A stretch of 64,000 nucleotides of DNA from a bacterium (lineage in GTDB: Bacteria; Actinomycetota; Acidimicrobiia; Spongiisociales; Spongiisociaceae), in the NCBI GenBank assembly GCA_028820935.1, contig JAPPHZ010000029.1, forward strand, positions 151,437 to 215,436, written 5' to 3'. Below the pieces are notes generated by a model that was not told the origin of the DNA, searched no databases, and saw only the letters and a program-made list of their open reading frames with translations. Every line of letters begins with the position of its first letter. The stretch's first letter is position 1. Positions 49,765 to 64,000 of this stretch are shown here, piece by piece. A program made the translations under genes and the position numbers.

Positions 49765-50733
49765 TCACCGTCCGCTGTTTCGGTGGTGGTGTAGTCGGTA
49801 GACGCGGCGGGTGTTCTCTCCGAGTATTTGGTCGATTTCGTGTTGGGGGATGCGGTAGCCCAGTTGTTTGGCCCATTCGGGGAGCATGCGGAATTGGTCT
49901 ACCCATTGTTTGAGGGTTAGGGAGACTTCTATGCCGGCCATGTCGGAGCCGAAGAGGATGCGGTCGGGTCCGATGCGGTCTCTCATCCATACGATTTTGC
50001 GGACTAGTTCGTCGGGGGAGATCCAGTGTTGCCATAGGCTCATGTCGAGGTGGACGTTGGTTTTGTAGATGGCGACGGAGATGGCTTCATGCGCCCAGGT
50101 TTCGTAGCGGGCGGAGTGGCCGAGGATGAAGCGTAGGTCGGGGAAGTCGGCGGCGGCTGAGTCGACGTAGATGGGGTGTCCGTATTTTGATTTGTGTCGT
50201 CCTGCGGAGTGTCCTTGGTGGAGGAGTACGGGTAGGTCTCTTTCGAGGAGGAACCGGTAGAGGGGGTAGACGACGTTTTCGTCGTCGGGGTAGAAGCCGT
50301 TGGTGGGATACAGTTTGAGGCCTATGGCGCCCCATTGGTCTACTGCGGTGGTGAGTATTTCGAGGGCGTCGGGGCGTCGGGGGTCTACTCCGCAGAAGGT
50401 GTAGAGGCGTCCGGGGTGTCTTTTGGTGGCTTCGGCGCAGAGCCGGTTCTTTTCTGCGATGGGGATGACGCCTTCTTCGCCCAGGCCGACACCGTGGTCC
50501 ATGGGCATCATCACCGACGCGTCGACCCCGGCCTCGTCCATGCGAGCAACCGCCTTATCACCGTTACCGTCGGCGGCCACACTCCAAGCCTTCGCGAAGT
50601 ACTCGGGGTCGGACTTGGGAGGGTCGTACCAGCGCACCTGCCTAGCCCAGGATTCGGCCATACCCGAGGACACGTTCATCGGGTTCCAATCGGGTTCCAT
50701 GATGTGCATATGGCAGTCCACCACCAAGGGCAT
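49765..50733 (-). CDS. Amidohydrolase-2 family hydrolase (copy B).
   Basis: MPLVVDCHMHI start with an AGAGGAG RBS upstream. The C-terminal 260 aa are identical to copy A. Confidence 0.75.
   Translation of the reverse strand: MPLVVDCHMHIMEPDWNPMNVSSGMAESWARQVRWYDPPKSDPEYFAKAWSVAADGNGDKAVARMDEAGVDASVMMPMDHGVGLGEEGVIPIAEKNRLCAEATKRHPGRLYTFCGVDPRRPDALEILTTAVDQWGAIGLKLYPTNGFYPDDENVVYPLYRFLLERDLPVLLHQGHSAGRHKSKYGHPIYVDSAAADFPDLRFILGHSARYETWAHEAISVAIYKTNVHLDMSLWQHWISPDELVRKIVWMRDRIGPDRILFGSDMAGIEVSLTLKQWVDQFRMLPEWAKQLGYRIPQHEIDQILGENTRRVYRLHHHRNSGR
49780..50562. repeat. Second copy of the identical 783-bp block.
   Basis: See 46483..47265. Confidence 0.85.
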
Positions 50734-50735
50734 GG

Positions 50736-52292
50736 TCACTCCTCTCTTGAACCGCTCCCCGTCAGGGGCGGATGCTTGGCGTTGTATACGGCCGCCGGCT
50801 CCAACGGTGTCCGGGCCCACGGGCGGTAGAAGTCGAGGACGTAGGGGTCCACCTCCCATCCCAGGCGCACCGACTCCGGGTCTGGGTCGCCTCCCATGAT
50901 GCGCGCAGCCGCTTCGGTGACGTAGTCATGCACCCGGCTGTGCGGAATGCGGGTGAACTCGCCGTCGTCGAACACGATCTCTCCGGCGACCATGACCGAG
51001 GCCACGTCGGCGGAAGAGGCTCGGTCGAGGATCACGTCCAGGGGCGGGGTGGACGCGTAGCGTTCCTCCGGCCAGAACAAGCGGTCGCGGCTCAATACGA
51101 CCAGGTCGGCTTCCTTGCCGACGCCGAGCGAGCCGAGTTCGGACTCGAAGCGGATCGCCCGGGCGCCGTTCTCCGCCGCGGCTCGCAGGACGGCTTCCGA
51201 ATCGAGGCGCCCGACCTCGAGCAATCCCGGCGTTCTCTGCAGGTAGGCGGCGAGGCGGAGCTCCTGCAAGAAGTCGCCGGAGTCGGAGAAGGAGATGTTG
51301 TCGGTGCCGAAGCACACCCGCCCGCCGCGGTCCATGATGTCCCTCACCCGCGCTATCCCGGTGCTGAGCCGGAGGTTGGAGCCGGGATTGTTGACGGCCA
51401 CCGCTCCCGTATCGGCGAGTATCGAGATGTCCTCGTCGGTCGCCCAGACGAAATGGGAACACGACACGTCGGGCCCCAGCACCCCGAGATCCGCCAGGCG
51501 GCGCATGGCGGTCTTGCCGTCGCTCTCCAGCGCGTACATCATCTCGGAGCGGGTCTCGAGCACGTGCGTCATGATCCCCGTTCCGAACTCATCGGCGAGG
51601 CGGCGGTTCCGGACGTAGAGCTCGTCCGAGCACGCCGGCGTCCAGTCCGGGGCGAGCAGTATCCGGATGCGGCCGTCCCGGTGATCCCACCGCGAGACCA
51701 GGTCCCGGTAGGTGGCGAACACCTCTCCGGTCGGCCACGCATAACCCATCGCCGATGCGCGCACGCGGGCAGCCAGATCCTCCGGGAGCATGGCGAGGAA
51801 CGACTCGTCGTCGGCGTGGACCAGGGTGTTCCGGTCCCTCGTCACCACACCGAGGGCCACCCGAACTCCGAGGTCCCGGTAGGCGGCCAGTATGGCGTCG
51901 TACCCGAAGTTGGGCAGACCGGACCGGCCGTAGTTGAGGTCGACGAACCCGGTCTGGCCTCCCCGCACGTCGTTCATGACGTTGGCCAGCACCGCGTGGT
52001 AGAGGTCCTCCTCGGTGACAGGGGTCCACATGCCATGCAAGTGGACGTTGGCCCGCTCGAAGATGTACTGGGCCATGCCCCTGCTCAGGGCCGAGCCCGA
52101 GTGATAATGACCGTTGATGAAGCCCGGAAGGACGGCATGGCGGGGCGATCCGACCCGCCGGTCGAAGGGACCGAGGCCCTCCAGATCGCGCCTCTTCCCG
52201 ATCCCTACGACGGTCCGATCCTCGACGACGAGCGCGCCGTCCCGGACATAACCCGGGGAAGCATCACCGAGGACGACGAGGGGATCTCCCAT
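50736..52292 (-). CDS. TRZ/ATZ-type amidohydrolase (paralog of 43561..45159).
   Basis: LPGFINGHYHSGS. Start trimmed to MGDPLVVLG (52292) by alignment to the paralog N-terminus. Confidence 0.7.
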   Translation of the reverse strand: MGDPLVVLGDASPGYVRDGALVVEDRTVVGIGKRRDLEGLGPFDRRVGSPRHAVLPGFINGHYHSGSALSRGMAQYIFERANVHLHGMWTPVTEEDLYHAVLANVMNDVRGGQTGFVDLNYGRSGLPNFGYDAILAAYRDLGVRVALGVVTRDRNTLVHADDESFLAMLPEDLAARVRASAMGYAWPTGEVFATYRDLVSRWDHRDGRIRILLAPDWTPACSDELYVRNRRLADEFGTGIMTHVLETRSEMMYALESDGKTAMRRLADLGVLGPDVSCSHFVWATDEDISILADTGAVAVNNPGSNLRLSTGIARVRDIMDRGGRVCFGTDNISFSDSGDFLQELRLAAYLQRTPGLLEVGRLDSEAVLRAAAENGARAIRFESELGSLGVGKEADLVVLSRDRLFWPEERYASTPPLDVILDRASSADVASVMVAGEIVFDDGEFTRIPHSRVHDYVTEAAARIMGGDPDPESVRLGWEVDPYVLDFYRPWARTPLEPAAVYNAKHPPLTGSGSREE

Positions 52293-52364
52293 CACCAGCG
52301 TCCGGCTCACCGTGGTCCTCCCACCCTGGTCCTCCTTGGGTGACCTGACCATAATGCCACCAGA

Positions 52365-53513
52365 GTGAGGTTGCTGGAACACGAGTCCAAGGCCCGCCTG
52401 GCCAGGGCCGGGGTGAGGGTTCCACGGGGCGCCGTCGCCACCACCCCGGAACAGGCCGGGTCTGCCGCGCCGGCTCTGGGCCGCGAGGTCTTCGTCAAGG
52501 CGTTGGTCCCGGCGAACCGGCGGTCGAAGAACAACGGCGTGATCGGCCCCATCGGGCCGGACGGCGTGGCGCGAGCGGCGCATGAGCTGCTCGCCTCCCG
52601 GATCCTGGGCCATCGGTGCCGGTCGGTATACGTGGAGGAGGCTGTCGCCGTGGCCGGAGAGCTCTATGCCGCCTTCTCGTGGAGTCCTCGCGGCCCCAGG
52701 GCCACCGCATCCGCCGCAGGAGGTGTGGACATCGAGAACTCGGGCGGTGCGATGGTCCATCTTGACCTGGAGGGGTTGGCGGACCTACCCCGAGGCGGGG
52801 CGGAGCGTCTCTGGGGGCGGGCGCTGGGCGACTCCCGGGTCCCGACTGCGCTGGTCGACCTGACCGTGTCCGCAGCCGGCGTCTTCTTCGACGACGCGCT
52901 GCTGGTGGAGCTGAACCCGCTGGCCAGGTCGGCCGACGGGTCGTTCACCGCAGTCGGCGCGCTGATCGAAATGGACGGCAGCGCCCTCTTCAGGCATCCG
53001 GAACTCCGATGGCGTCCCGACGGACTCAGCGAGCGGGAGGCCGTCGTGGCAGAGGCCGACCGCCGGCTTCCGGGCGCCTCGGTACGTTACGTGGAGCTCG
53101 ACGGTGATACGGGGCTGCTGGTGGGCGGCGGCGGCGCCGGGCTGTACCAGCACGATCTGCTGGTCCGAGCGGGGGTGCGACCGGCCAACCACAGCGACCT
53201 GGGCGCCGGGGTATCGGCCGAGAAGCTGGACGTGCTGATCGGGGCCGTGCTCGGCCACCCGAACCTCTCGCGCCTGCTGGTCAGCTTCAACATCCTCCAG
53301 CTGGCCCCGTGCGACCTCATCATGGAGAGACTCCTGGCGGGCCTGGACAGGATGCGAGGCCGGGACGGCCCGATCCCGGTGGTGGTCCGGCTCGAGGGCC
53401 TCAACGCCGAGCGGGCCCGGAGGCTGGCGGCAGGACGCGCCGGTTTGCGGTACCTTCCCTCCGGAGCGAGCCTGGGAGAGGCCGTGGACACCCTGGTCAG
53501 GATCAGCCGGTGA
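52365..53513 (+). CDS. Succinyl-CoA synthetase beta-subunit-like ADP-forming CoA ligase (ATP-grasp plus ligase-CoA domain).
   Basis: LLEHESKARLARAG, LVELNPLARSADGSFTAVGALIEMDGSALFRHPEL and VVVRLEGLNAERARRLA align with SucC. Confidence 0.75.
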   Translation: MRLLEHESKARLARAGVRVPRGAVATTPEQAGSAAPALGREVFVKALVPANRRSKNNGVIGPIGPDGVARAAHELLASRILGHRCRSVYVEEAVAVAGELYAAFSWSPRGPRATASAAGGVDIENSGGAMVHLDLEGLADLPRGGAERLWGRALGDSRVPTALVDLTVSAAGVFFDDALLVELNPLARSADGSFTAVGALIEMDGSALFRHPELRWRPDGLSEREAVVAEADRRLPGASVRYVELDGDTGLLVGGGGAGLYQHDLLVRAGVRPANHSDLGAGVSAEKLDVLIGAVLGHPNLSRLLVSFNILQLAPCDLIMERLLAGLDRMRGRDGPIPVVVRLEGLNAERARRLAAGRAGLRYLPSGASLGEAVDTLVRISR

Positions 53514-53728
53514 TCGTCCGAGCCGACATGGCGTCGATCGTCTGGCGGATAACCGTCGGCGAAGGCGAACGGGTGCGAGCCGGGCAGGAGCTCCTCATCC
53601 TCGAGTCGATGAAGATGGAGATGCCCGTCCTCGCTCCGGTGGCCGGGATGGTGGCCGATATCCCGGTGGCTGAGGGCGACGTCATCGAGGCCGGTGACGA
53701 GCTGGTGCGGATCGAACGCAGCCGGTGA
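53510..53728 (+). CDS. Small biotinyl-domain carrier protein (BCCP / 1.3S-like, about 72 aa).
   Basis: ITVGEGERVRAGQELLILESMKMEMPVLAPVAGMVADIPVAEGDVIEAGDELVRIE: a biotin-attachment MKM hammerhead. GTGA overlaps at both ends. Confidence 0.7.
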   Translation: MIVRADMASIVWRITVGEGERVRAGQELLILESMKMEMPVLAPVAGMVADIPVAEGDVIEAGDELVRIERSR

Positions 53729-54621
53729 GCATCCTGGTCGACGAGCGGACCCGGATCCTGGTCCAGGGCATAACCGGCTCCGTAGGCCGGGTGGATACCC
53801 GGCTATGCCTCGACTACGGATCCCGGATCGTGGCCGGCGTCACGCCCGGACGGGGTGGGGAATCGGTCTCGGGGGTTCCGGTCTTCGATACGGTGGCCGA
53901 AGCAGTCGAGCGGACCGGGGCCACCGCGGCGGTTCAGTACGTGCCGGCCCGCCATGCGGCCGACGCGGTGGTGGAGGCGGCCGCATCCGGCCTGTCGCCG
54001 ATCGTGGCCATTGCGGAGAACCTGCCCCGGCATGATGCCTGGCGGGCCGCCGTGGCCGCCAGGGGCGCCGGTTCGGTCCTGATCGGGTTCAATACCAACG
54101 GCATCATCTCACCGGGAAGGACGAAGCTGGGGGGTATCGGCGGGCCGAGGCCCGACGACCTGTTCCGCGCCGGAACCGTGGGTGTCTGCTCCCGGTCGGG
54201 GGGAATGTCCGCCGAGATCGCCCGCTCGCTGGCCAGGGCCGGCAGCGGCGTCTCGACCTGCGTCTCGATGGGAGGGGAGTCGATCACCGGAAGAACCATG
54301 GCCGAGTACGCCCGCTGGTTCGAGGCGGACGAAGCCACCCGCAGCATCGTGGTCTTCGGAGAGCCGGGATCGGAGCATGAGGCACTGCTGGCCGCGGCCA
54401 TGGAGCGCGGCGAGGTCACCAAACCGGTCGTGGCGATGATCGTGGGCCAGTTCCAGGATGCCTACCCGGCCGGATCCTCGTTCGGCCATCTATCGGCGAT
54501 GGTGCGGCTCGAGACCGACCGTGCGGTGGTGAAGCGTGACATGCTGGCCGCTGCCGGAGCGCTTATAGCGGAGCGCGTCGAGGACATCCCCGACCTGATT
54601 ACCGTCATGGATGCGGGATGA
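53725..54621 (+). CDS. Succinyl-CoA synthetase alpha-subunit-like CoA-binding protein.
   Basis: MSILVDERTRILVQGITGSVG...GVTPGRGG...PVFDTVAEAV...VCSRSGGMS...FGH aligns along the full length with SucD. Confidence 0.75.
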   Translation: MSILVDERTRILVQGITGSVGRVDTRLCLDYGSRIVAGVTPGRGGESVSGVPVFDTVAEAVERTGATAAVQYVPARHAADAVVEAAASGLSPIVAIAENLPRHDAWRAAVAARGAGSVLIGFNTNGIISPGRTKLGGIGGPRPDDLFRAGTVGVCSRSGGMSAEIARSLARAGSGVSTCVSMGGESITGRTMAEYARWFEADEATRSIVVFGEPGSEHEALLAAAMERGEVTKPVVAMIVGQFQDAYPAGSSFGHLSAMVRLETDRAVVKRDMLAAAGALIAERVEDIPDLITVMDAG

Positions 54622-56174
54622 TCTGGGACCCAGAACTCGAGGAGATGGAGCGCCGGAAGGCGTTCGCGCTCTCGATGGGCGGGGACGAGGCCGTGGCGCG
54701 CCAGCACGACGCCGGCCGGCTCACCGCCAGGGACAGGATCGCTCTCCTGCTCGACGAGGGCACCTGGCAGGAGATCGGGACCTACACCGGTGCGGCCACC
54801 TATGACGCGGAGGGCCGGCTCGTCAGCGTGAAGCCGGCCAACACCATCATCGGAACAGGCCGGGTCCGCGGCCGTCGGGTGGCCGTCGAAGCCGACGATT
54901 ACACGATCAGGGGAGGCTCGACGGAAGCGCAGATCTCGGAGAAGTGGGAGTTCATCAACCGGTACGCGCTGGAGATGCGGATGCCGATGATCCGTCTCGT
55001 GGAGAACGTCGGGGGAAGTGTCCGCCTGCTCGAGAAGATGGGGCGGACCAAGATCCCCGGATACCGCATGTGGCCCCTCGCCGGGATGCTCGGCTACGTG
55101 CCCGTAGTGGCCTTGGTGCTGGGTCCGTCAGCGGGTCTCGGTCCTATGAAGGCCGCCAGCAGCCACTTCTCGGTGATGGTCCGCGGTACCAGCCAGGTGT
55201 TCGCCGCCGGCCCTCCGGTGGCGCGGGTCGCCCTGGGCAGGGACATCGACAAGGAGGAGCTGGGAGGCGCCCACATCCACACCGAGCAGAGCGGAGTGAT
55301 CGACAACGCGGCCGACTCGGAGGAGGAGGCGATCTGCCTGGCGCGCCGGTTCCTGTCCTACCTTCCGCAGAGCGTGTTCGAGATGCCTCTCCACCGCCCG
55401 TCCGACGATGCGCCCGACCGCGCCGAGGAGGAGTTGGCTTCGATCATCCCGCGTAACCAGCGCCGGGTCTACGACTCGCGGAGGCTCCTGGCGCTGGTCT
55501 TCGACCGTGGCACGCTCTTCGAGATCGCGCCGGCCTACGGTCCCTCATCTATCACGATGCTGGCCCGCCTCAACGGTTACCCGGTTGGGGTGATCGCCAA
55601 CGATCCCTACCGGTTCGGGGGCGGTCTGACCCGCGCCGCCGCCGAGAAGGTCGAGACGTTCGTGGATCTGTGCGACACCTTCCACGTTCCGATCGTGAAC
55701 TTCGTGGACCAGCCCGGCACCGTGATCGGGCTGGAAGCCGAGCGCGAAGGAGCTGTGCGGGGGACCATCCGCCTCATCTCCGCCATCGAGCAGTCGAGGG
55801 TTCCGTGGTGCGGCATGATCGTGCGGCGGCTCTTCGGTCTGGCGGGCACCAGCTACGGCCGGCTGCAGGGGCTGAACCTTCACTATGCCTGGCCGTCTGC
55901 CCGGTGGGGTTCGATCCCGATCCAGGGAGGGGTGAGAGCCGCCTTCCGCCGGGAACTCGACGCCCTGCCCCCCGACGAGGCGGCGGAAAGGCTGGCACGG
56001 CTGGAGGAGCAATACGACGGGCTGTCGTCACCCTTCCGGACGGCGGAGGCCTTCGGGGTTCCGGAGATCATCGATCCCCGCCGGACCAGACCCGTCCTGT
56101 GCCAGTGGATCGAGGACGCCTATGCCGTGCTCCCCGAGCAACTGGGGCCGACAGCCCGTACCATGCGCAGGTAG
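54618..56174 (+). CDS. Acyl-CoA carboxylase carboxyltransferase subunit (PccB/AccD-like; methylmalonyl-CoA decarboxylase alpha-like).
   Basis: Carboxyl-transferase-domain architecture. 518 aa. ATGA overlap with the upstream gene. Confidence 0.75.
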   Translation: MIWDPELEEMERRKAFALSMGGDEAVARQHDAGRLTARDRIALLLDEGTWQEIGTYTGAATYDAEGRLVSVKPANTIIGTGRVRGRRVAVEADDYTIRGGSTEAQISEKWEFINRYALEMRMPMIRLVENVGGSVRLLEKMGRTKIPGYRMWPLAGMLGYVPVVALVLGPSAGLGPMKAASSHFSVMVRGTSQVFAAGPPVARVALGRDIDKEELGGAHIHTEQSGVIDNAADSEEEAICLARRFLSYLPQSVFEMPLHRPSDDAPDRAEEELASIIPRNQRRVYDSRRLLALVFDRGTLFEIAPAYGPSSITMLARLNGYPVGVIANDPYRFGGGLTRAAAEKVETFVDLCDTFHVPIVNFVDQPGTVIGLEAEREGAVRGTIRLISAIEQSRVPWCGMIVRRLFGLAGTSYGRLQGLNLHYAWPSARWGSIPIQGGVRAAFRRELDALPPDEAAERLARLEEQYDGLSSPFRTAEAFGVPEIIDPRRTRPVLCQWIEDAYAVLPEQLGPTARTMRR

Positions 56175-56261
56175 CCGGAACGAGGAGATGCTCCGGCGCC
56201 GACCGCGCCATCCACCGATTACCCGAGACCTGGAAGCGCCCACTGCGAAAGCGAGGAGAAA

Positions 56262-57611
56262 GTGTCTGATCGGATCATCATCGAGAACGCTGCCATCGTG
56301 ACGATGAACGAAGAGGACGATGTGATCTTCGACGGGTCGATGGTCATCGAGGGCAACCGGATCGTCGCCGTCGGGGGCTCGGAGGCGGTGTCCGGATACG
56401 ACCGCGCCGGTGCGAAGGTCATCGACGCCGGCGGGAAGGCGGCCCTACCGGGGTTCGTCGACCTCCACTACCACACCGCCATAGGTAAGGGATACTGCGA
56501 CCATCTGGATCTGTGGGAGATCCTGCAGGCGTTCTGGTATCCGATGATCCGGGCCCTCAATCCCGAAGAGGCCTACTGGGCGGCCATGGCCAGCTACAGC
56601 GAGTCGTTGAAGGCCGGCGTCACCACCGCCAACGACATGTTCCGCCAACTCCCGGCCCTGGCGCGGGCGGCGGTCGACAGCGGGATCCGGGTGGTTCTCT
56701 CCAACGACATAGCCGACCCGGAGCACGATCTCGACCTGATCGAGGACAACGAGTCGGCCTACCACGAGTGCCACGGGATGGGCGACGGGCGGGTGGAGGT
56801 CTACGTGGGTATCGAGTGGCTACCCCTCGCCTCCGAGCAACTGCTGGTGGACTGCCGGGCGCTGGCCGACCAGTTGGGGACCGGTATCCACATCCACCTG
56901 AACGAGTCCCTCGGCGAGGTCGAGATATCTAAGCAGGCCTTCGGCGGGCGTCGGCCCACCGAGGTGGCTTACGACACCGGGATCCTGGGACCTGATTGCG
57001 TGGCCGCCCACTGCGTGCATCTGTCGGACCGGGAGATCGGGCTCATGAGCGAGACAGGAACCCACATCTCCCACAATCCCACCTCCAACGCCAAGCTCGG
57101 CAACGGTATCGCCCGGCTGCCCGAGATTCTGGAGGCGGGGATCAATGTCGGTCTGGGCCATGACTCGGCGGAAGGAACCAACAGCTGCGACCTGTTCCAG
57201 GTGATGAAGTGGGCGTCGCTGGTGCATCGGGCCGAGCGCAAGGACGCCACGATCCTTCAGGCGCCAACCATCCTGCGAATGGCGACCAGGAACGGCGCGC
57301 GTGCCCTAGGCCACGAGACGGGCGAGTTGAGCGTCGGGAAGGTGGCGGACGTGATCCTGGTCAACCTCCAGAACCACCATTTCACTCCTTTCGTGCCGGG
57401 TAACAAGATCCATCTCATGTCACATCTGGTCTACAGCGCGGAGAGCGCCGCGGTCGACACCACCATCGTGGACGGCACGATCGTGATGGAAGGGCGCGAG
57501 TTCGTGGCCTTCGACGAGGAGGAAGTGCTGGCGAAGGCGACCGAGAGCTTCTTCACCTGCACCGACCGGATGGAGGTCCCCGAGGAATACGCCGGGCTTC
57601 TCGACCGCTAG
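56262..57611 (+). CDS. TRZ/ATZ-type amidohydrolase (third paralog).
   Basis: PGFVDLHYHTA HxH motif. GTG start with a GAGGAG RBS upstream. Confidence 0.75.
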   Translation: MSDRIIIENAAIVTMNEEDDVIFDGSMVIEGNRIVAVGGSEAVSGYDRAGAKVIDAGGKAALPGFVDLHYHTAIGKGYCDHLDLWEILQAFWYPMIRALNPEEAYWAAMASYSESLKAGVTTANDMFRQLPALARAAVDSGIRVVLSNDIADPEHDLDLIEDNESAYHECHGMGDGRVEVYVGIEWLPLASEQLLVDCRALADQLGTGIHIHLNESLGEVEISKQAFGGRRPTEVAYDTGILGPDCVAAHCVHLSDREIGLMSETGTHISHNPTSNAKLGNGIARLPEILEAGINVGLGHDSAEGTNSCDLFQVMKWASLVHRAERKDATILQAPTILRMATRNGARALGHETGELSVGKVADVILVNLQNHHFTPFVPGNKIHLMSHLVYSAESAAVDTTIVDGTIVMEGREFVAFDEEEVLAKATESFFTCTDRMEVPEEYAGLLDR

Positions 57612-57616
57612 GTCAT

Positions 57617-57650
57617 TAGTTGCTAGTTGCTAGTTGCTAGTTGCTAGTTG
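57617..57650. repeat. Tandem 7-bp repeat TAGTTGC, about 4.9 copies, in a convergent intergenic region.
   Basis: The tagttgctagttgctagttgctagttgctagttg run is read directly from the sequence. Confidence 0.9.
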
Positions 57651-57683
57651 TATTGGGTGATCATTGACAACAAACCCTTGGAA

Positions 57684-58115
57684 CTAGCTATCTCGCGTCT
57701 CCACGAGTTCTACGAGCAGGCCGTCGAACTCGCGGGGATGGACGAATGCGATCATGGTGCCCATCCCGCCGGGGCGGGGCTGCTCGTCGATGAGTTGAAC
57801 GCCCAGGCTGCGGAGCCGCCGGAGATACTCCCCGATGTCCTGCACCTCGAAGGCGATGTGGTGTAGGGCCGAGCCACGCTTGTCCACGAACTTGCCGACC
57901 ACCCCGGGTCCGGTCGCCTCGAGGGTCTGGACGAAGCCGTCCCCGACAGGGAGCATCCTCTCGGTGAATCCCGGTCCGCCCTCCTCGTGGCAGACCGGGA
58001 CGCCCAGCAACTCGGCGAACCGGTCGTGCGGCGCGGACGTAGGGGTATGCGCGAAGGCGACGTGGTGGATCCTGAGCGGGGGTGGCCACGCGGGAGGGAT
58101 CGGTTCCTGGACCAT
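57684..58115 (-). CDS. Methylmalonyl-CoA epimerase-like VOC-family protein.
   Basis: ALHHIAFEVQDIGEYLRRLRSLGVQLIDEQPRPGGMGTMIAFVHPREFDGLLVELVE closely matches the MCE C-terminal half. TAATG overlap with the upstream LLM stop. Confidence 0.7.
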   Translation of the reverse strand: MVQEPIPPAWPPPLRIHHVAFAHTPTSAPHDRFAELLGVPVCHEEGGPGFTERMLPVGDGFVQTLEATGPGVVGKFVDKRGSALHHIAFEVQDIGEYLRRLRSLGVQLIDEQPRPGGMGTMIAFVHPREFDGLLVELVETRDS

Positions 58116-59098
58116 TACAGACGGGAGAAGACCCTCGCGAACGCCTCGACCGTTTCCCGGCGCCGGGAACCGAGCGGGAACACGGTCACCGAATCCACTC
58201 CCAGATCGGCCAGGGTCCGGAGATGGGCCAGGGCTTGGTCGCTGTCGCCGGCGAAGGCCATCTTCTCCACGAACTCCCTGGGCATGATCGAGGCCGCGGC
58301 GAGTGCCTCCTGGAACTCGCCTCCCGCGTAACGAGCCTTGACGTCGGCCGAAATGGCGGGGTCCAGGCCGGCCAGTTCGCAGTAGACCGGCGCGGTCTGC
58401 GGAAACCAGGCGGCGATGGAGCGGGCGGCCTGCAAGGCGCCGGCGGGATCATCGTCGTCGATCACGCCGTAGCCGAACACCGACACGTGGGGGCGGGACC
58501 GCCCTGCCCGCTCGGCGCCCCGGTCGATGTGCTCCAACCCGTAGGCGACCCCGTCCCGGAACAGGCCGCCCAGGAAAATGACCCCGTCCGCTATCTCGCC
58601 GGCCAACTCCAGGGTCTTGGGCCCGCTCGCCGAGATGAACACGGGAATCCGGTAGGAGGCTTCGAACCGCAGATGGGCGTCGTCCATCGTGAATCCTGCC
58701 CCTTCGTAGGTCACATGTTCGCCAGCAAGTAGCCGCCTGATCACCTCTATCGACTGCCGCATCTCCAGGAGCCGGGCCGGCCGCAGGCCGAGCGAGCGGA
58801 GCGGACGATCACCGGCGCCGATACCGAGAACGGTCCTTCCGGGCGCCAGCTCCTCGAGGCTGGCCGCGTTGACGGCGACGATGCCGGGATGGCGGGTCTG
58901 CGGGTTGGTCACCGCGGTTCCCAGCACCATGCGGGTGGTCAACCGGGCGGCCAGGGTGAGGTGCATGTAGGGGTTCCGGGTGTGGAGGGAGGAGTCGGTG
59001 AGCCAGAGGTAGTCGTACCCGCACCGGTCCACCACCCGGACCATGTCCTCGAATACGTGGGGAGGGTAACGACCCTGTAGGGCTACACCGGTCTGCAT
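58115..59098 (-). CDS. LLM-class flavin/F420-dependent oxidoreductase.
   Basis: CGYDYLWLTDS and LLM barrel pattern. Start trimmed to MQTGVALQ (59098). Confidence 0.7.
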   Translation of the reverse strand: MQTGVALQGRYPPHVFEDMVRVVDRCGYDYLWLTDSSLHTRNPYMHLTLAARLTTRMVLGTAVTNPQTRHPGIVAVNAASLEELAPGRTVLGIGAGDRPLRSLGLRPARLLEMRQSIEVIRRLLAGEHVTYEGAGFTMDDAHLRFEASYRIPVFISASGPKTLELAGEIADGVIFLGGLFRDGVAYGLEHIDRGAERAGRSRPHVSVFGYGVIDDDDPAGALQAARSIAAWFPQTAPVYCELAGLDPAISADVKARYAGGEFQEALAAASIMPREFVEKMAFAGDSDQALAHLRTLADLGVDSVTVFPLGSRRRETVEAFARVFSRL

Positions 59099-59102
59099 AC
59101 GA

Positions 59103-60191
59103 TCATCCTGCCTTCCTGTCGTACCGGACGATGGTATCGGCCAGGGCTGCGAGCCCGGTTCCGATCGGTTCGGTCTCAATCCATTCCCCGGGGGTGTGCT
59201 CGCCGGATCCGAAGGTGATGCCGATAGTGACCGCCGGGATCCCCGCCGCGTAGGCGGCGTTGGCGTCGGTACTGGCTGCGACGTGTTCCGGATCGATCCC
59301 GACGGCGGCCAGGGCGGCGTCGGCGGCCGCCACCAGAGGATGCGTCTCCGCGATCGATCCCGCAGGTCGCTTGCCCAGTTCCTTGCAGGTGGTCGCCAGT
59401 TGTGTTTCGGAGTCCACCACGCGGCGCGCCGCGGAATCGAGATCGACGAGGACCGTCGGGTCGGCGGACCGGATGTCGACCCGAAGGGCGGCGCGGCGGG
59501 CGCGGGCGTTGATCGACTCGCCGCCCTCGATGTGTCCTACGTTGAGGGAACACCGCGCCCGGCTCCTGGCGCCCGGTAGCAGGCGTTCCAGACCCACGAT
59601 GATCCTCGCCAGGTCGTGGATGGCGCTGGGAGCGTCGGCGGCCTCCCAGGAGTGCCCTCCCGGACCCTCGAGCTCGACCAGGTGGCGGACCGATCCGACA
59701 CCGACGGTCACCACCCGTCCGAGGTAGTTGCCCTCCAGGGCGATGAGAGCGCCCATCCCGGCGGGAGGATGCTCCACTAGGTGGAGCGCTCCGGCGAGGT
59801 TGCCCAGGCCCTCCTCGGCGGTGGTGGCCGCTATCCACACCGGCCGCGACAGGTCCTTCGGAAGGAGGCGGTCGAGCAGGGACAGGGCTGCGACGGCCAC
59901 GGTGTTATCACCGACCCCGACGCCATAGAGCCGGCCGCCCCGCTGCTCGGTTCCATGGGGGATGTCCCGGCCGAAGACCGTGTCGAGGTGGGCGGCTACG
60001 AACGTTGCCGGACCTTCGCCCATCCGGAGCCGGGCGACAACGTTCCCCACCCCGTCAACCCGCGGTCGCAGCCCGTCCGCGCGCCACCATCCGGCCACGA
60101 CCTCCGCCCGGTCGGCCTCGTCGAGGGGAGGCGCCGGGACCGCCGCCAACTCGACGGTACGCGCTAGCACGACCGCAGCTGCATCGGTCAT
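59103..60191 (-). CDS. M20-family metallopeptidase / deacylase.
   Basis: FVAAHLDTV and GVGDNTVAVA M20 motifs. Start trimmed to MTDAAAVV (ATGA overlap with the upstream stop). Confidence 0.7.
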   Translation of the reverse strand: MTDAAAVVLARTVELAAVPAPPLDEADRAEVVAGWWRADGLRPRVDGVGNVVARLRMGEGPATFVAAHLDTVFGRDIPHGTEQRGGRLYGVGVGDNTVAVAALSLLDRLLPKDLSRPVWIAATTAEEGLGNLAGALHLVEHPPAGMGALIALEGNYLGRVVTVGVGSVRHLVELEGPGGHSWEAADAPSAIHDLARIIVGLERLLPGARSRARCSLNVGHIEGGESINARARRAALRVDIRSADPTVLVDLDSAARRVVDSETQLATTCKELGKRPAGSIAETHPLVAAADAALAAVGIDPEHVAASTDANAAYAAGIPAVTIGITFGSGEHTPGEWIETEPIGTGLAALADTIVRYDRKAG

Positions 60192-61396
60192 CCCGGCTCG
60201 GCCGCTATCCCGCCTGCGATGAGGGCATCGACGTCGGCCGGCTCCATTCCGGCCTGGAGGAGCGAATCCCGCGTGTGCTGGCCGAGGAGGGGCGCAGGCC
60301 CGGGGATCGGCAGGGGTTCGCGGTCGATCCGGAGCGGCAGGCCGATCGCAGGGTAGGCGCCCGCCAAGTCGTGCACCAGCGTCTGGACCGAGCCGAGCGC
60401 CCGCGCCTGGGACCCGTCCAGCACTCCGCCGATGTCGTTGATGCGGTCCGCGGGCACCTGAGCTTCTGCGAACAGGGCCAGCCACTCCGCGACGTCCTTC
60501 CGGGTGGTGATCGACTCGATCTCGGCGGTCAGTTCATCACGAGCCGCCACCCGGGAGGCGTTGTCGGCGAAGCGGGGGTCTTCTAGCAGGTGCGCGGCAC
60601 CGAGCGTCTCGCAGAAGCGGCGCCACAGCGCCTCCGATCCGGCGCCGGCTGCCACGAAGTGTCCGTCGCGGGCACGGAATGCTCCGTAGGGAGCGAAGGT
60701 GGGGGAGTGGCTGCCCAGCAGGCCCGGCAGCTCGCCGTTCACGAGGTACGCCGTCGCAACCGTGGCCAGCGCGGCCAGCGAGAACTCGAGCAGCGACGTG
60801 GAGACCTGGCGCCCGCGGCCGGTTCGTTCCCGTTCCGCCAGCGCGGCGAGCACCCCGACGACGCAGGCGAGACCGGCGCCGATGTCGGTGACCGGGACCC
60901 CGATCTTGGCGGGGCCGGTGGATTGATGGCCGGTGACGCTCATCAGGCCGCCGGACGCCTGGAGAATGAGATCGAACCCACCCTTCCCGGCGTCGGGACC
61001 CACGTCCCCGAAGCCGGAGACCGACCCGTAGACGAGGGAGGGGAAACGGGCGTGGACAGATGGGTAGTCGAGCCCGTACTTGGCGAGGCTGCCCGGCCGT
61101 CCGTTCTCCAGCAGGACATCCGCGGAGGCCAGCAGCGCATCCATGGCGGGCCGGGCATCCTCCGCCCGGAAGTCGAGAGCGATGCTCTTCTTGGCGCTGT
61201 TGAGGGTCATGAACAGCACCGACTCGTCCCCCACGCGTGCCGTTCCCTGGTTCCGGTAGGGGTCGCCCCCGGACGGGCCCTCGATCTTGAGAACCTCCGC
61301 GCCCAGGGTCGCCAGGATGAAGGAGGCGTACGCCCCCGAGACGAATCTGGTCAGGTCCACCACCCGGAGACCGTCCAGCATGCCCCCTCCGCTCAC
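60188..61396 (-). CDS. CoA-transferase family III protein (CaiB/BaiF/Frc-like).
   Basis: LDGLRVVDLTRFVSGAYASFILATLGAEVLKIE N-terminal signature. 402 aa. Confidence 0.8.
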   Translation of the reverse strand: MSGGGMLDGLRVVDLTRFVSGAYASFILATLGAEVLKIEGPSGGDPYRNQGTARVGDESVLFMTLNSAKKSIALDFRAEDARPAMDALLASADVLLENGRPGSLAKYGLDYPSVHARFPSLVYGSVSGFGDVGPDAGKGGFDLILQASGGLMSVTGHQSTGPAKIGVPVTDIGAGLACVVGVLAALAERERTGRGRQVSTSLLEFSLAALATVATAYLVNGELPGLLGSHSPTFAPYGAFRARDGHFVAAGAGSEALWRRFCETLGAAHLLEDPRFADNASRVAARDELTAEIESITTRKDVAEWLALFAEAQVPADRINDIGGVLDGSQARALGSVQTLVHDLAGAYPAIGLPLRIDREPLPIPGPAPLLGQHTRDSLLQAGMEPADVDALIAGGIAAEPG

Positions 61397-62985
61397 CAGG
61401 GGCTCGGTTCCCGGAACTCGCCGAACTCGTCCCGCATCACGTCGCTCATCTCACCCAGCGTCACTCCGCCCCGCGCGCAGTCCAAGATCGGGGGCATGAC
61501 GTTGGTTCCATTGCGCAGAGCCTTCCGCAGGGCCGCGAGCGTCGCCGCGGCCGCCGGCTCGTCCCGGGCGGCCTTTCTCCGTTCCGTCCGAGCGATCTGG
61601 AGATCCCCGATCTCGGGATCCAGCGTGAACAGGCGGGGCTCGTGCTGTGTCTGCGAGTCGTCCACGTAACGGTTCACGCCCACCCGTACCCTGGATCCGT
61701 CGGCGATCTCCCTCTCCGTCCGGTAGGCCTCCGCCGCTATCCACCGTTGGGGTGTTCCCGACTCCAGTGCCTTGACCGCTCCTCCCAGTTGCTCGACGGC
61801 CGTCATGACCTCGCGGGCGCGGCGCTCCACCTCGTCGGTGAGAGACTCGACGTAATAGGAACCCGCCAAGGCGTCGACCGTATCGGCGACACCGGACTCG
61901 TGCGCCACGATCTGCTGCGTCCGCAGGGAGAGCGTGACGGCCTCCTCGGTGGGTAGTTCGTAGGCCTCGTCATAGCCCATCACGTGTATGGACTGGGCGC
62001 CCCCCAGCACCGCGCCCAGGCATTGGATGGTCGAGCGGATGATGTTGTTGAGAGGCTGCGCGGCGGTGAGAGTGGTACCCGAGTTCCCGGAGAAGAAGCG
62101 AAGCCGTGCCGAGCGGGGGTCCGTGGCGCCGAAGCGGATGGTGGCCGTGTCGTGCCAGAGTCGCCGGGCCGCCCTCAGCTTGGCGACTTCCTCGAACAGG
62201 TTCATGGTGGTGGCGAAGTGGAACGAGAACCGGGGCGCGAAGGAGTCGAACGGGAGTCCTCGGGCCTGCAGTTCCTCGGCGTAGGCGATGGCGGATGACA
62301 TGGTCAGGCCCAGTTCCTGGACGGCATTGCAACCGGCCTCCCTGGCGTGATACCCGGTCACGGAGATCGGGTTGAAGCGGGGCAGGTGTTCGGACGACCA
62401 TTCGACGATGTCCGCCACCAGGCGCATGGACGCTGCCGGTGGAAAGATGAATGCCTTGCGGGCCAGGAACTCCTTGAGCAGGTCGTTCTGGAGCGTTCCC
62501 GACAGGTCCGCATAGGATGCGCCCTGGCGCTCGGCCGTCACCAGGTAGAAGGCCAGGATGATCGGCGCCGTGGCGTTGATGGTGAAGTTCACCGAGAGCT
62601 TGTCGAGGGGCAGACCTTCGAACAACCCCGCCATGTCGTCGGCGGTGTCGATGGCCACTCCCACCCGGCCGACCTCGGCGCGGGCCATGGGATGCGAGGA
62701 GTCGTAGCCGAGTTGGGTCGGGAGGTCGAAGGCGACCGAGAGCGCGGTCTGGCCCTGTTCCAGCAGGAAGCGGAAGCGATCGTTGGCGTCCTCGGCGCTG
62801 CCGTAGCCGGCGAACTGGCGCATCGTCCAGAGGCGCCCCCGGTACATCGTCTCGTACGGCCCCCTGGTGAAGGGCGGGTGGCCCGGGAGCCCCAGATGTT
62901 CACCGGGCCGGAATCCCTCCAGATCGTCCTGCGTGTAGACGGGAGCGACCGGGATGCCCGAGTCGGTACGGCGCTCGCCTGTCAT
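61393..62985 (-). CDS. Acyl-CoA mutase large (substrate-binding TIM-barrel) subunit, methylmalonyl-/isobutyryl-CoA mutase family, split type.
   Basis: GHPPFTRGPYETMYRGRLWTMRQFAGYGSAEDANDRFRFLLEQGQTALSVAFDLPTQ, a classical mutase motif run. 530 aa with no B12 domain. Confidence 0.85.
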   Translation of the reverse strand: MTGERRTDSGIPVAPVYTQDDLEGFRPGEHLGLPGHPPFTRGPYETMYRGRLWTMRQFAGYGSAEDANDRFRFLLEQGQTALSVAFDLPTQLGYDSSHPMARAEVGRVGVAIDTADDMAGLFEGLPLDKLSVNFTINATAPIILAFYLVTAERQGASYADLSGTLQNDLLKEFLARKAFIFPPAASMRLVADIVEWSSEHLPRFNPISVTGYHAREAGCNAVQELGLTMSSAIAYAEELQARGLPFDSFAPRFSFHFATTMNLFEEVAKLRAARRLWHDTATIRFGATDPRSARLRFFSGNSGTTLTAAQPLNNIIRSTIQCLGAVLGGAQSIHVMGYDEAYELPTEEAVTLSLRTQQIVAHESGVADTVDALAGSYYVESLTDEVERRAREVMTAVEQLGGAVKALESGTPQRWIAAEAYRTEREIADGSRVRVGVNRYVDDSQTQHEPRLFTLDPEIGDLQIARTERRKAARDEPAAAATLAALRKALRNGTNVMPPILDCARGGVTLGEMSDVMRDEFGEFREPSPW

Positions 62986-63386
62986 GGCGCGACGGCGGCG
63001 GAGGCCTCGCGGAATATCCCGTCCACCACCTCATCCAGGGGGGATCCGACCGGGAAGACCCGGGAGATCCCGATCTCCCTCAGGGCGTCGGCGTCGGCCT
63101 CGGGAATGGTCCCGCCGATGACGATCGGGACATCAGCAAAGCCGGCCTTGCCTCGTTCCTCCACCAGCTGGCGGCCTAGAGCGAGGTGGGCTCCGGAGAG
63201 CACCGAGATGCCGATTACGTCGGCGCTCTCCTCGATCGCCGCGGTGATAATCCGCTCCGGTGATTGCCGGAGGCCGAGAAAGATCACCTCGGCGCCGGCA
63301 TCCCGGAGGGCCATCGCGATGACCTTCACGCCGCGGTCGTGGCCGTCGAGACCGGGCTTGGCCAGGAGGATCCGGGGCCGGCTCAT
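62982..63386 (-). CDS. Cobalamin (B12)-binding small subunit of the split acyl-CoA mutase.
   Basis: ILLAKPGLDGHDRGVKV (DxHxxG B12 motif). Start trimmed to MSRPRILLAK. ATGA overlaps on both sides. Confidence 0.8.
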   Translation of the reverse strand: MSRPRILLAKPGLDGHDRGVKVIAMALRDAGAEVIFLGLRQSPERIITAAIEESADVIGISVLSGAHLALGRQLVEERGKAGFADVPIVIGGTIPEADADALREIGISRVFPVGSPLDEVVDGIFREASAAVAP

Positions 63387-64000
63387 CCCGGCAACTCTCC
63401 ATCGCTGATCACCACCTCGCCGTCGATCTCGAGTGTGGCGGCGGCCATCACGCAGTCCAGATGGGCGGTTGCGTCGACCGTCCCCCCGTAGGCGATGGAG
63501 TTGCCGAGGGCAATGTGGGCCGTCCCCAGCGCCGACTCGGTCTCCATGGGGACCCCGCAAATGGTTCCCAGCGGGTTGAGACCCATGGACACCTCGGCCA
63601 GGTTGCTCATCCGGTCGTCGTCACAGCGGGCGATCATCTCGAGGAGCCGGTTCCTGTGGGTGCCGTCGGTGCCCACCATCCGTCCGTTCTCGAAGTGCAT
63701 CACGACCGGCTCGGGGAGGGGTCCCCTGCCCATGAAGAGCAGGTCACCGTCGATCACGGCGGTTCCCGAGGTGGTCTCCTCGACCGGCGCGGTGCCGGCC
63801 TCGATGTCGGGCGGCGCCATGTACTGGCCGTCGGCCCTGGCTATCCCGTCCAGCACCCGCCCGGCCCGGTTCTCGATCGAGCCTTGCAGATCGGTCCCGG
63901 CAGGGCTGGTGAGCCTGAACCCGGAACCGCGGTCCCAAGCGGTTCCCACCTTGACGGCGACGGCGCGCTGGGAGTCGAAGTCGACCGTTAGGGGGCCACC
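63383..64000 (-). CDS. Possible M29-type aminopeptidase-like protein, C-terminal part (5'-partial; the frame is open to the window end).
   Basis: GTAHIALGNSIAYGGTVDATAHLDCV resembles the aminopeptidase T/S C-terminus. No stop in frame up to 64000. Confidence 0.35.
   Translation of the reverse strand, partial: GGPLTVDFDSQRAVAVKVGTAWDRGSGFRLTSPAGTDLQGSIENRAGRVLDGIARADGQYMAPPDIEAGTAPVEETTSGTAVIDGDLLFMGRGPLPEPVVMHFENGRMVGTDGTHRNRLLEMIARCDDDRMSNLAEVSMGLNPLGTICGVPMETESALGTAHIALGNSIAYGGTVDATAHLDCVMAAATLEIDGEVVISDGELPG

Follow-up and report, generated by a model that had tools for sequence, protein, structure and literature searches.

A conserved operon of Acidimicrobiia carrying an uncharacterised clade of B12-dependent acyl-CoA mutases

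The right-hand end of a 64,000-nucleotide stretch of contig JAPPHZ010000029.1, from a member of the Acidimicrobiia, carries an operon that encodes both subunits of an adenosylcobalamin (AdoCbl)-dependent acyl-CoA mutase together with a family III CoA-transferase (CaiB), a vicinal oxygen chelate (VOC)-fold protein, a luciferase-like (LLM) oxidoreductase and metalloenzymes of the M20 and NicX/M29 types (Table 1). We refer to the whole stretch as the window. Open reading frames and junctions, read directly from the sequence, place seven co-directional genes on the minus strand between 57684 and 64000. ATGA overlaps connect the NicX-like gene with the gene for the B12-binding small subunit, the latter with that for the mutase large subunit, and the CaiB gene with the M20b gene. 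The mutase/CaiB junction is a GTGA overlap or, alternatively, an 11-nt gap to the ATG at 61381, which is preceded by GGAGG; a 4-nt gap separates M20b from LLM, and TAATG joins LLM to VOC. The start of the operon lies outside the window and is found in the public contigs of the source organism (L001 and L002). In L001 the NicX-like gene is complete (8641–9603, 320 codons), a second M20 gene of the ArgE/DapE type (M20a, 396 aa) lies upstream of it with a 4-nt overlap, and genes for a rhodanese (after a 33-nt gap), an aldehyde dehydrogenase and a zinc alcohol dehydrogenase lie upstream of M20a on the same strand and are possibly further members. Sigma-70 and terminator scans revealed no internal promoters or terminators, which is weak evidence in an actinobacterium of 66% GC. 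The seven genes and their upstream continuation are a tightly coupled operon. The original prediction, a reading of this DNA that used no database searches, had claimed a coupled seven-gene minus-strand operon convergent with one on the plus strand and had assigned each gene to a family; the junctions and the position of the facing plus-strand gene confirm the first two claims, and Pfam and NCBIfam bear out all of the family calls at family level.

Table 1. Features at the right-hand end of the window, in window coordinates.
Feature	Position	Strand	Remarks and basis
NicX/M29-like gene	63383 to beyond 64000	-	C-terminal 205 codons of a 320-aa protein; runs off the window end
B12 small subunit, 134 aa	62982-63386	-	Pfam, NCBIfam
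Acyl-CoA mutase large (substrate-binding) subunit, 530 aa	61393-62985	-	Pfam
CaiB/BaiF/Frc-type family III CoA-transferase	60188-61396	-	Pfam; start GTG 61396 or ATG 61381
M20b metallohydrolase, 362 aa	59103-60191	-	Pfam
LLM (luciferase-like) oxidoreductase, 327 aa	58115-59098	-	Pfam, NCBIfam
VOC-fold protein, 143 aa	57684-58115	-	NCBIfam, PDB matches
Convergent intergenic spacer	57612-57683		72 bp
TRZ/ATZ-type aminohydrolase (deaminase), 449 aa	56262-57611	+	NCBIfam
SCS-beta-like ATP-grasp protein, 72-aa biotinyl carrier, SCS-alpha-like protein, PccB/MmdA-like carboxyltransferase	52365-56174	+	Pfam, NCBIfam

The mutase belongs to the AdoCbl acyl-CoA mutase family. Its large subunit matches MM_CoA_mutase (PF01642) over the full length (654 bits, E = 1.8e-196), and its small subunit matches both the Pfam B12-binding domain (PF02310; 92 bits, E = 4e-26) and TIGR00640 acid_CoA_mut_C (142 bits against a 57-bit cut-off), with the DxHxxG motif present as DGHDRG. 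The top PDB match of the large subunit is HcmA (4R3U, 511 bits), and human methylmalonyl-CoA mutase (MCM) scores 432 bits. We compared pocket columns, in P. shermanii MCM numbering, across an alignment of 205 large subunits that included 126 members of the window clade, 75 sequences like isobutyryl-CoA mutase (ICM-like) and the reference MCMs of E. coli, human and P. shermanii. In MCM, Tyr89 and Arg207 bind the substrate carboxylate. The pocket of the window mutase reads F89/A116/R207/H287/F328/G330/N331/M366, and the MCM residues Y243, H244 and E370 are also retained. All 126 clade members have Arg at position 207, as does MCM, in place of the Gln of HcmA and the ICM-like group; Ala116 is common to the clade, MCM and the ICM-like group (Asp in HcmA). 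Position 89 is Phe in 119 of the 126, as in the ICM-like sequences, and Tyr, the MCM residue, in the remaining seven (Ile in HcmA). The most distinctive changes fall at five positions where MCM, HcmA and the ICM-like sequences agree (apart from Asp at 366 in 2 of the 75 ICM-like sequences): F287 is replaced by His, H328 by Phe, Q330 by Gly and N366 by Met, all without exception in the clade, and T331 by Asn (123/126) or Cys (3/126).

These features set the window mutase apart from each of the types with which it was compared. The MCM systems (P. shermanii MutAB, human MMUT and E. coli scpA-argK-scpB-scpC) share its family and fold as well as R207, A116, Y243, H244 and E370, and they have a CoA-transferase and an epimerase-like partner, as in succinate-propionate routes. 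Canonical MCM, however, pairs Arg207 with Tyr89, which is Phe in the window mutase and most of its clade, and has F287/H328/Q330/T331/N366 where the window mutase has H/F/G/N/M. The window genes are moreover split in the order small-then-large, have no MeaB/ArgK nearby and are joined by a family III transferase rather than the family I ScpC. ICM (IcmAB/IcmF) combines Phe89 with Gln207; the window mutase has the Phe, and its identity to F/Q-type split mutases of many phyla is about 50%, but position 207 is Arg and the five altered positions retain F287, H328, Q330, T331 and N366 in the ICM type, which also places the large subunit before the small one and often has MeaB nearby. We considered whether the roughly 50%-identical proteins with the motif WTMRQFAG might be housekeeping split MCMs in which Phe89 is normal, and rejected the idea since their Gln at position 207 is of the ICM type. 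HcmAB (4R3U) is the best solved-structure sequence match and is likewise split into large and small subunits. Its residues I90, D117 and Q208, the determinants of 2-hydroxyisobutyryl-CoA mutase (HCM) specificity, align with F, A and R in the window mutase, whose substrate should carry a carboxylate.

The closest parallel to the rebuilt pocket is offered by proteins named 'protein meaA' in NCBI and UniRef, which depart from MCM at the same positions (287, 328, 330, 331 and 366) and read Y89, A116, R207, S/A243, N287, Y328, G330, S331 and C366. Ethylmalonyl-CoA mutase (Ecm/MeaA) reportedly acts with an ethylmalonyl-/methylmalonyl-CoA epimerase in the ethylmalonyl-CoA pathway, as Erb et al. are said to have described in 2008. 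Both enzymes are AdoCbl acyl-CoA mutases with Y/F89, A116 and R207, both have an aromatic residue at 328 and Gly at 330, and both have a VOC-fold epimerase partner. MeaA differs in being a single chain of 696–702 aa with a C-terminal B12 domain, whereas the B12 subunit of the window is encoded by a separate upstream gene. Identity is only 45–47%, residues 287/331/366 are H/N/M in the window mutase and N/S/C in the MeaA type, Y243 is kept in the former and lost in the latter, and no Ccr, Mcd or Mch genes are present at the window locus. A cultured ethylmalonyl-CoA mutase reference was sought in the plasmid collection, which gave no close or MeaA-annotated match. Because Arg207 is kept and the methyl (or migrating-carbon) side of the pocket is rebuilt as in ethylmalonyl-CoA mutase, which takes a 2-alkylmalonyl-CoA larger by one carbon, the substrate is probably not plain methylmalonyl-CoA; the best available indication from these residues is that it keeps the malonyl/succinyl carboxylate and differs from methylmalonyl-CoA on the methyl side.

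Phylogenetic placement agrees with the pocket comparison. All of 200 neighbour-joining bootstraps recovered canonical MCM, the clade of MeaA-named proteins and the window clade as separate groups. Deeper nodes had little support, with 52% for a supergroup of G330 lineages (the window clade, its sister clade, the MeaA type and others). Members of the window clade share at least 62.7% identity with one another, against at most 55% with ICM-like sequences and 41–46% with MCMs and HcmA. We searched 1.84 billion cluster representatives exhaustively with HMMER, which yielded 21,741 members of the mutase family and, fragments aside, no representative closer than about 50%. Many uncharacterised lineages in this search keep Y-A-R yet vary at 287, 328, 330, 331 and 366, and altered pockets occurred in dozens of the best 150 representatives of 50%-identity clusters that were examined. 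The clade itself is well populated: its best 120 cluster representatives alone, most of them metagenomic, are 70–95% identical to the window mutase. By this placement the window mutase belongs to an uncharacterised clade of the acyl-CoA mutase family outside the housekeeping MCMs. The earlier description of a split Icm/Hcm/MCM-type mutase is upheld, and the clustering with canonical MCMs that would have told against the original prediction is not seen.

A G-protein chaperone of the MeaB/ArgK type is usually, though not obligatorily, encoded with MCM. A tblastn search with E. coli ArgK as query found no MeaB homologue in the window or in L001–L009, and none appears among the Pfam annotations of L001, L086 and L087, which confirms what had been noted for the window, whereas 16 loci of the ICM-like comparison group have an ArgK homologue within 10 kb. 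This raises the question of how the cofactor is loaded.

The operon is conserved and widespread in Acidimicrobiia. We compared ten loci, namely the window/source locus and L005–L009 and L086–L089 (metagenome-assembled genomes (MAGs) of Acidimicrobiia/Actinomycetota, found by genome scan and contig look-ups), in which the related mutases are 65–89% identical to that of the window. M20a, the mutase large subunit and CaiB are found in all ten, the B12 subunit, VOC and LLM in nine each (LLM in eight by tblastn and in L088 as an annotated Bac_luciferase gene), the NicX-like gene in eight and M20b in seven. Gene order and stop/start overlaps are mostly preserved; L008 and L009 are exceptions, with the NicX-like gene lying some kb farther upstream and the VOC gene in inverted orientation. 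Since both gene set and order recur in ten independent loci, the arrangement is not due to chance, and the hydrolases, being conserved neighbours, are part of the unit rather than bystanders, just as the original prediction had it. M20b is absent from L005 and L006, whose mutases are the closest (89% and 84% identical), and has no match in L088, while relatives at 65–78% identity carry it, which implies either recent loss or a dispensable gene; in L005 (12792–12926) and L006 (12776–12892) the slot between CaiB and LLM is empty. Beside the operon, L007, L088 and L089 carry a homologue of the window deaminase with 50–70% identity, and L087 carries two. The window deaminase is closest to the chlorohydrolase, 5'-deoxyadenosine deaminase and SsnA types of NCBIfam, all below cut-off. 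Other recurrent neighbours are a GntR/FCD regulator, TenA-like and Amidohydro_2 proteins, alcohol and aldehyde dehydrogenases, and a rhodanese or an NMT1/SsuA-type ABC importer. One of the TenA neighbours exceeds the equivalog cut-off for thiaminase II (TIGR04306; 135 against 130), and xanthine-dehydrogenase-type genes also occur in related loci.

The CoA-transferase and the VOC protein, proposed from the outset as mutase partners, have proved to be constant companions of the mutase across the related loci. CaiB matches CoA_transf_3 at 381 bits (E = 7e-114; profile positions 1–366 of 366), and the Asp in its segment GVPVTDIGAG, the conserved active-site residue, aligns with the Asp of 4ED9. 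Its nearest NCBIfam and PDB relatives are succinate--glutarate (SUGCT 9BR7, 217 bits), succinyl-CoA:mesaconate and formyl-CoA/oxalate transferases; it falls below every equivalog cut-off of NCBIfam. By these similarities it is a predicted family III CoA-transferase closest to the dicarboxylate CoA-transferases. The VOC protein resembles Glyoxalase_4 and methylmalonyl-CoA epimerase (MCE), scoring 90.5 bits to TIGR03081 against a cut-off of 114.95. Its PDB matches are mostly methylmalonyl-CoA epimerases (six entries at about 60–63 bits, e.g. 6WF6), the single top match being annotated just as glyoxalase, and the motifs HHVAF, Q..E, HHIAFE and VELVE, which may hold the His/Gln/His/Glu metal ligands of such epimerases, are visible in the sequence. 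A VOC homologue was found only in loci of the window mutase clade and its sister clade.

The remaining enzymes are more difficult to assign. The NicX-like protein had been labelled 'M29-like', for which sequence support is weak (Pfam M29, E = 1e-3) and the predicted fold clear. The precomputed Pfam annotation of L001 gives PF26233 NicX, the PDB sequence match to NicX (7CN3) has E = 5e-4 at 18% identity, and the AlphaFold model (pLDDT 84.5) matches 7CN3 in Foldseek with TM 0.80 (E = 5e-24) and the M29 aminopeptidases PepS, AmpT and AmpS with TM 0.60–0.70. Residues E251, E268, E270, H277, H295 and D297 are invariant. The iron ligands of NicX are reportedly His265, His318 and Asp320. When the two proteins are aligned with phmmer, H295 and D297 match the HLD motif of NicX, and a Glu stands where His265 would fall; the residue pattern looks more like an M29 dinuclear site than the NicX iron site. 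By its predicted fold the protein is clearly a member of the NicX/M29 superfamily, of the NicX type, and either an oxygenase or a hydrolase activity is plausible. M20b carries Peptidase_M20 (E = 9e-19) and M20_dimer domains, and its top PDB match is a poly(aspartic acid) exo-hydrolase (7LJH, 148 bits); M20a is similar to ArgE, DapE and YgeY. LLM matches Bac_luciferase (PF00296) at 170 bits (E = 7e-50) and the NCBIfam family Mer at 183 bits, below its 276-bit cut-off; more than 15 F420-dependent LLM families outrank the FMN families, and its top PDB matches are Mer structures (156 bits). Its best similarity is therefore to Mer-like, F420-dependent enzymes, and F420 is its putative cofactor.

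Additional clues come from the sister clade of the mutase, which carries Y89 and whose cluster members have just generic database names. The nearest full-length representative, P0241, is 49.5% identical to the window mutase, and its B12 domain is fused N-terminally, mirroring the small-then-large gene order of the window operon. Such N-terminal fusions occur in the sister clade and in a few window-clade members (P0241, P0443, P0503 and P0102); the B12-binding domain of classical MCM and MeaA is C-terminal. The P0241 operon encodes a GntR/FCD regulator, the mutase, CaiB, a dihydropyrimidinase (468 bits against a cut-off of 393), a PreT-like protein, PreA (379 against 335), a methylmalonyl-CoA epimerase (132 against 115) and a TRZ/ATZ deaminase. 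In a 72%-identical member of the same clade, GntR, mutase, CaiB and VOC genes are followed by a TAXI-TRAP acid transporter. The invariant core of the sister clade is thus a regulator, the mutase, a family III transferase and an epimerase, fed by free-acid uptake or by ring-degrading enzymes.

Taking these observations together, we propose that the operon is catabolic and consists of a constant back end and a variable front end, which would lead from a nitrogen-containing precursor to a B12-dependent carbon-skeleton rearrangement; we put the chance that this is correct at about even. The back-end module is more secure than the front end; what the precursor and the acid are, which way the mutase works and in what sequence the steps follow are all inferred. 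The front end would comprise M20a, the NicX-fold metalloenzyme, M20b, the F420-type reductase and the neighbouring TRZ/ATZ deaminase. The precursor would most plausibly be a pyrimidine or pyridine with amino or oxo substituents. The TRZ/ATZ enzyme would deaminate it, the F420-type LLM protein would reduce it, and ring opening and deacylation would fall to the NicX-like enzyme and the M20 hydrolases. CaiB would then thioesterify the resulting free acid, a branched dicarboxylic acid of the 2-substituted malonate or succinate kind, probably with CoA from succinyl-CoA or from the pathway's own product. The VOC protein would epimerise C2, and the split AdoCbl mutase would migrate the thioester carbon, interconverting 2-alkylmalonyl-CoA and 2-substituted succinyl-CoA skeletons; the succinyl-type CoA ester so formed could donate its CoA to the next acid molecule.

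Judged by family content, the context appears to point at least as strongly to an amino-N-heterocycle as to an N-acyl precursor, because of the TRZ/ATZ deaminase, the NicX fold, TenA, Amidohydro_2, and the dihydropyrimidine dehydrogenase and dihydropyrimidinase of the sister locus. Two known kinds of pathway offer partial parallels. Aerobic nicotinate and picolinate clusters use a ring-cleaving dioxygenase (NicX/PicD) followed by a deformylase and an amidase, and nicotinate fermentation includes a B12-dependent 2-methyleneglutarate mutase step. The window operon resembles the former in that a NicX-fold enzyme adjoins amide hydrolases, with Amidohydro_2 and xanthine-dehydrogenase-type genes in related loci, and the latter in that an N-heterocycle pathway would end in a B12 carbon-skeleton rearrangement. 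It differs in the low identity to NicX and the Glu at the position of the NicX ligand His265, in having M20 hydrolases instead of NicD and NicF, and in that its mutase would act on a CoA ester rather than a free acid. Reductive pyrimidine catabolism proceeds through the PreTA dihydropyrimidine dehydrogenase, dihydropyrimidinase and beta-ureidopropionase, and M20 enzymes include known carbamoylases. The likeness here lies in the sister-clade operon, where PreA, a PreT-like protein and dihydropyrimidinase accompany the mutase, CaiB and epimerase, and in the deaminase as a constant neighbour; in the window clade, by contrast, the F420-type LLM, two M20s and the NicX-like protein would have to substitute for PreTA and dihydropyrimidinase.

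We also put forward, tentatively and as a proposal that we consider unlikely, that the mutase clade catalyses an undescribed rearrangement of a hetero-substituted 2-(X-methyl)malonyl-CoA, X being amino, ureido or hydroxy. The X-methyl acid would arise from a deaminated, reduced, opened and deacylated C5-substituted pyrimidine or substituted pyridine, candidate rings being thymine-, 5-hydroxymethyluracil- or thiamine-pyrimidine-like compounds, and the product, a CoA ester of the aspartyl, malyl or succinyl type, would pass straight into central metabolism. If true, the B12 step of nicotinate fermentation would have an aerobic, CoA-dependent counterpart, and N-heterocycle catabolism would be linked to B12 radical chemistry in a new way that is widespread in Acidimicrobiia. 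Salvage of the thiamine pyrimidine (ThiXYZ, YlmB, TenA) was considered as an explanation of the whole operon and rejected; the NMT1 transporter and TenA occur in some loci only, and such salvage needs no mutase, transferase or epimerase.

Several observations weigh against a heterocycle-to-rearrangement pathway. Tyr89, as in MCM, persists in 7 of the 126 clade members, and the changes at 330 and 366, positions that we take to contact the adenosyl ribose in MCM structures, may rewire adenosine binding rather than substrate choice, in which case MCM activity would still be possible. The MeaA/Ecm signature used as a parallel derives from database-named MAG proteins and not from the characterised Rhodobacter enzyme. 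M20b and the NicX-like gene are each missing from some loci, and no aminotransferase, dihydropyrimidinase or PreTA was found in the window clade. The pyrimidine-type context was seen in just one sister locus, and other clades of the mutase radiation lie among beta-oxidation-like or other genes; since those contexts differ, gene context is clade-specific. Finally, the sulfur-related neighbours (rhodanese, SsuA-like transporter and alkyl sulfatase) are unaccounted for by any explanation considered here. They comprise a 3-mercaptopyruvate-sulfurtransferase-like rhodanese (L001 6560–7420, also in L005, L006 and L086), an NMT1/SsuA-type (sulfonate-type) ABC transporter in L087–L089 and an SdsA-like alkyl sulfatase in L009 (5184–7085).

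Part of the case for other explanations turns on the plus-strand operon that faces the mutase operon. Its four genes, for two succinyl-CoA synthetase (SCS)-like proteins, a biotinyl carrier and a carboxyltransferase, overlap successively by 4 nt and are followed after an 87-nt gap by the deaminase gene. The carboxyltransferase has its top PDB matches in 1X0U (annotated as methylmalonyl-CoA decarboxylase alpha subunit; 275 bits) and PccB (270 bits), and no biotin carboxylase gene is encoded with this operon. Being PccB/MmdA-like, the enzyme should handle the (2S)-2-carboxyacyl-CoA class that the epimerase would make or consume; a functional link between the two operons is therefore possible, and either direction of flux would be chemically sensible. 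No described system was matched to this combination of SCS-beta, biotinyl carrier, SCS-alpha and carboxyltransferase. Among the related loci, only L005 keeps the carboxyltransferase, biotinyl carrier and SCS-alpha-like genes near the mutase operon, and the carboxyltransferase operon is absent within 10 kb in the other eight of the nine.

The scheme first suggested for this locus was that the M20 and M29-like hydrolases release a branched or dicarboxylic acyl group from an N-acyl compound and that the freed acid is activated with CoA and rearranged, the product passing to the carboxyltransferase operon. We regard it as unlikely, though with a better claim than the alternatives that follow. The ArgE/DapE likeness of M20a suggests a deacylase, M20b resembles a poly(aspartate) exo-hydrolase, and the carboxyltransferase would accept the same class of 2-carboxyacyl-CoA that the epimerase would deliver; the conserved deaminase partner is the last gene of the plus-strand operon, and L005 retains the linkage. 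The final transfer is plausible as chemistry, but the adjacency of the two operons is kept in that one relative only. The missing biotin carboxylase and the lack of M20b in the two closest relatives also tell against the scheme, and the NicX fold, TRZ/ATZ deaminase, TenA and Amidohydro_2 point instead to ring chemistry.

A simpler reading, which we judge to have a rather low probability, is that a divergent actinobacterial lineage runs the ordinary methylmalonyl-CoA pathway, converting methylmalonate derived from propionate, odd-chain compounds or thymine to succinyl-CoA, with the hydrolases in the same regulon and chemically unconnected. R207, A116, Y243 and H244 of MCM are indeed retained, Tyr89 occurs in the sister clade and in those seven clade members, the sister-clade VOC passes the MCE equivalog cut-off, and the minimal sister locus (transporter, transferase, epimerase and mutase) amounts to a complete methylmalonate-to-succinate route. 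Against this, the clade does not fall within canonical MCM, it has replacements at five positions that the compared MCM, ICM-like and HcmA sequences conserve, MeaB is not nearby as it is in the 16 loci of the ICM-like group, and the ten loci retain the translational coupling with the hydrolase genes.

The mutase might also run in reverse as part of a decarboxylation route like E. coli Sbm-YgfG-YgfH or the succinate pathway of Propionigenium, which strikes us as improbable as well. A succinate-type acid would be activated by CaiB or the SCS-like ligase and converted by the mutase to a 2-alkylmalonyl-CoA, the epimerase would invert C2, and the biotin carrier and carboxyltransferase would decarboxylate the ester to a shorter acyl-CoA. 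The window supplies the mutase, transferase, epimerase, MmdA/PccB-like carboxyltransferase, 72-aa biotinyl carrier and SCS alpha- and beta-like genes, and both the decarboxylase annotation of the top carboxyltransferase match and the absence of biotin carboxylase suit this route. However, the linkage was seen just in the window and in L005, there was no sign of a membrane decarboxylase subunit, and the conserved M20a, NicX-like, LLM and deaminase genes are left unexplained. Least probable by far is a biosynthetic role, in which the mutase would supply an alkylsuccinyl unit to a natural product. Such a role has been proposed for ActD of the actinonin cluster and MatB of the matlystatin cluster, split mutases of an HcmA-like subclass that work with an epimerase on 2-alkylmalonyl-CoA (PMC5719088). 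No crotonyl-CoA carboxylase/reductase, non-ribosomal peptide synthetase, polyketide synthase or tailoring genes were found in the window or related loci, and the hydrolase, deaminase, transporter and GntR/FCD neighbours are typical of catabolism.

Returning to the catabolic two-part operon, its back end resembles the transferase-epimerase-mutase cores of methylmalonyl and ethylmalonyl routes, with a mutase that departs from the canonical MCM, ICM, HCM and MeaA types. It is best filed as an uncharacterised acyl-CoA mutase clade in a new operon context. To our knowledge only a handful of specificities have been established in this family (MCM, ICM/IcmF, ECM, HCM/RCM and PCM). The clade is a good entry point for extending that list, being abundant in soil and marine Acidimicrobiia and encoded in a compact, conserved operon whose other genes point to its likely partners, and the sister-clade context hints at where the substrate comes from. 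Once its substrate is identified, a further B12-dependent reaction would be known, probably together with a new route for the catabolism of an N-containing compound, and the blanket annotation 'methylmalonyl-CoA mutase' that clade proteins now carry would be corrected.

Some further features of the locus deserve mention. A perfect tandem heptamer (TAGTTGC, 4.9 copies; Tandem Repeats Finder) at 57617–57650 forms an AT-rich island in the spacer between the converging operons, set in sequence of 66% GC; a terminator scan gave no terminator-like hairpin in this spacer. No cobalamin riboswitch was found in the window, L001, L086, L087 or L091. The sole riboswitch seen is an S-adenosylmethionine (SAM) riboswitch (RF00162, 69.6 bits) at L001 2369–2451, about 7.5 kb past the right end of the window on the operon strand. 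It lies 284 nt upstream of an OsmC-family gene, after which come a 527-nt gap, the alcohol dehydrogenase, aldehyde dehydrogenase and rhodanese genes, and the operon. The deposited assemblies of the same organism break within the locus: one contig stops inside the deaminase gene, and L003, an 8.7-kb contig, covers window positions from about 50200 to 58900, with the upstream amidohydrolase at one end and the LLM gene at the other. Neither deposited assembly is as contiguous here as the window. To the left of the carboxyltransferase operon, positions 30436–52310 hold a dense island of amide- and heterocycle-degrading genes, which encode hydantoinases A and B, a dimethylformamidase-like protein, a phosphotriesterase-family protein, a TenA-like protein (42899–43555), two TRZ/ATZ-type amidohydrolases of about 525 aa, three Amidohydro_2 proteins, an amidase, a second LLM protein and two zinc alcohol dehydrogenases of 367 aa.

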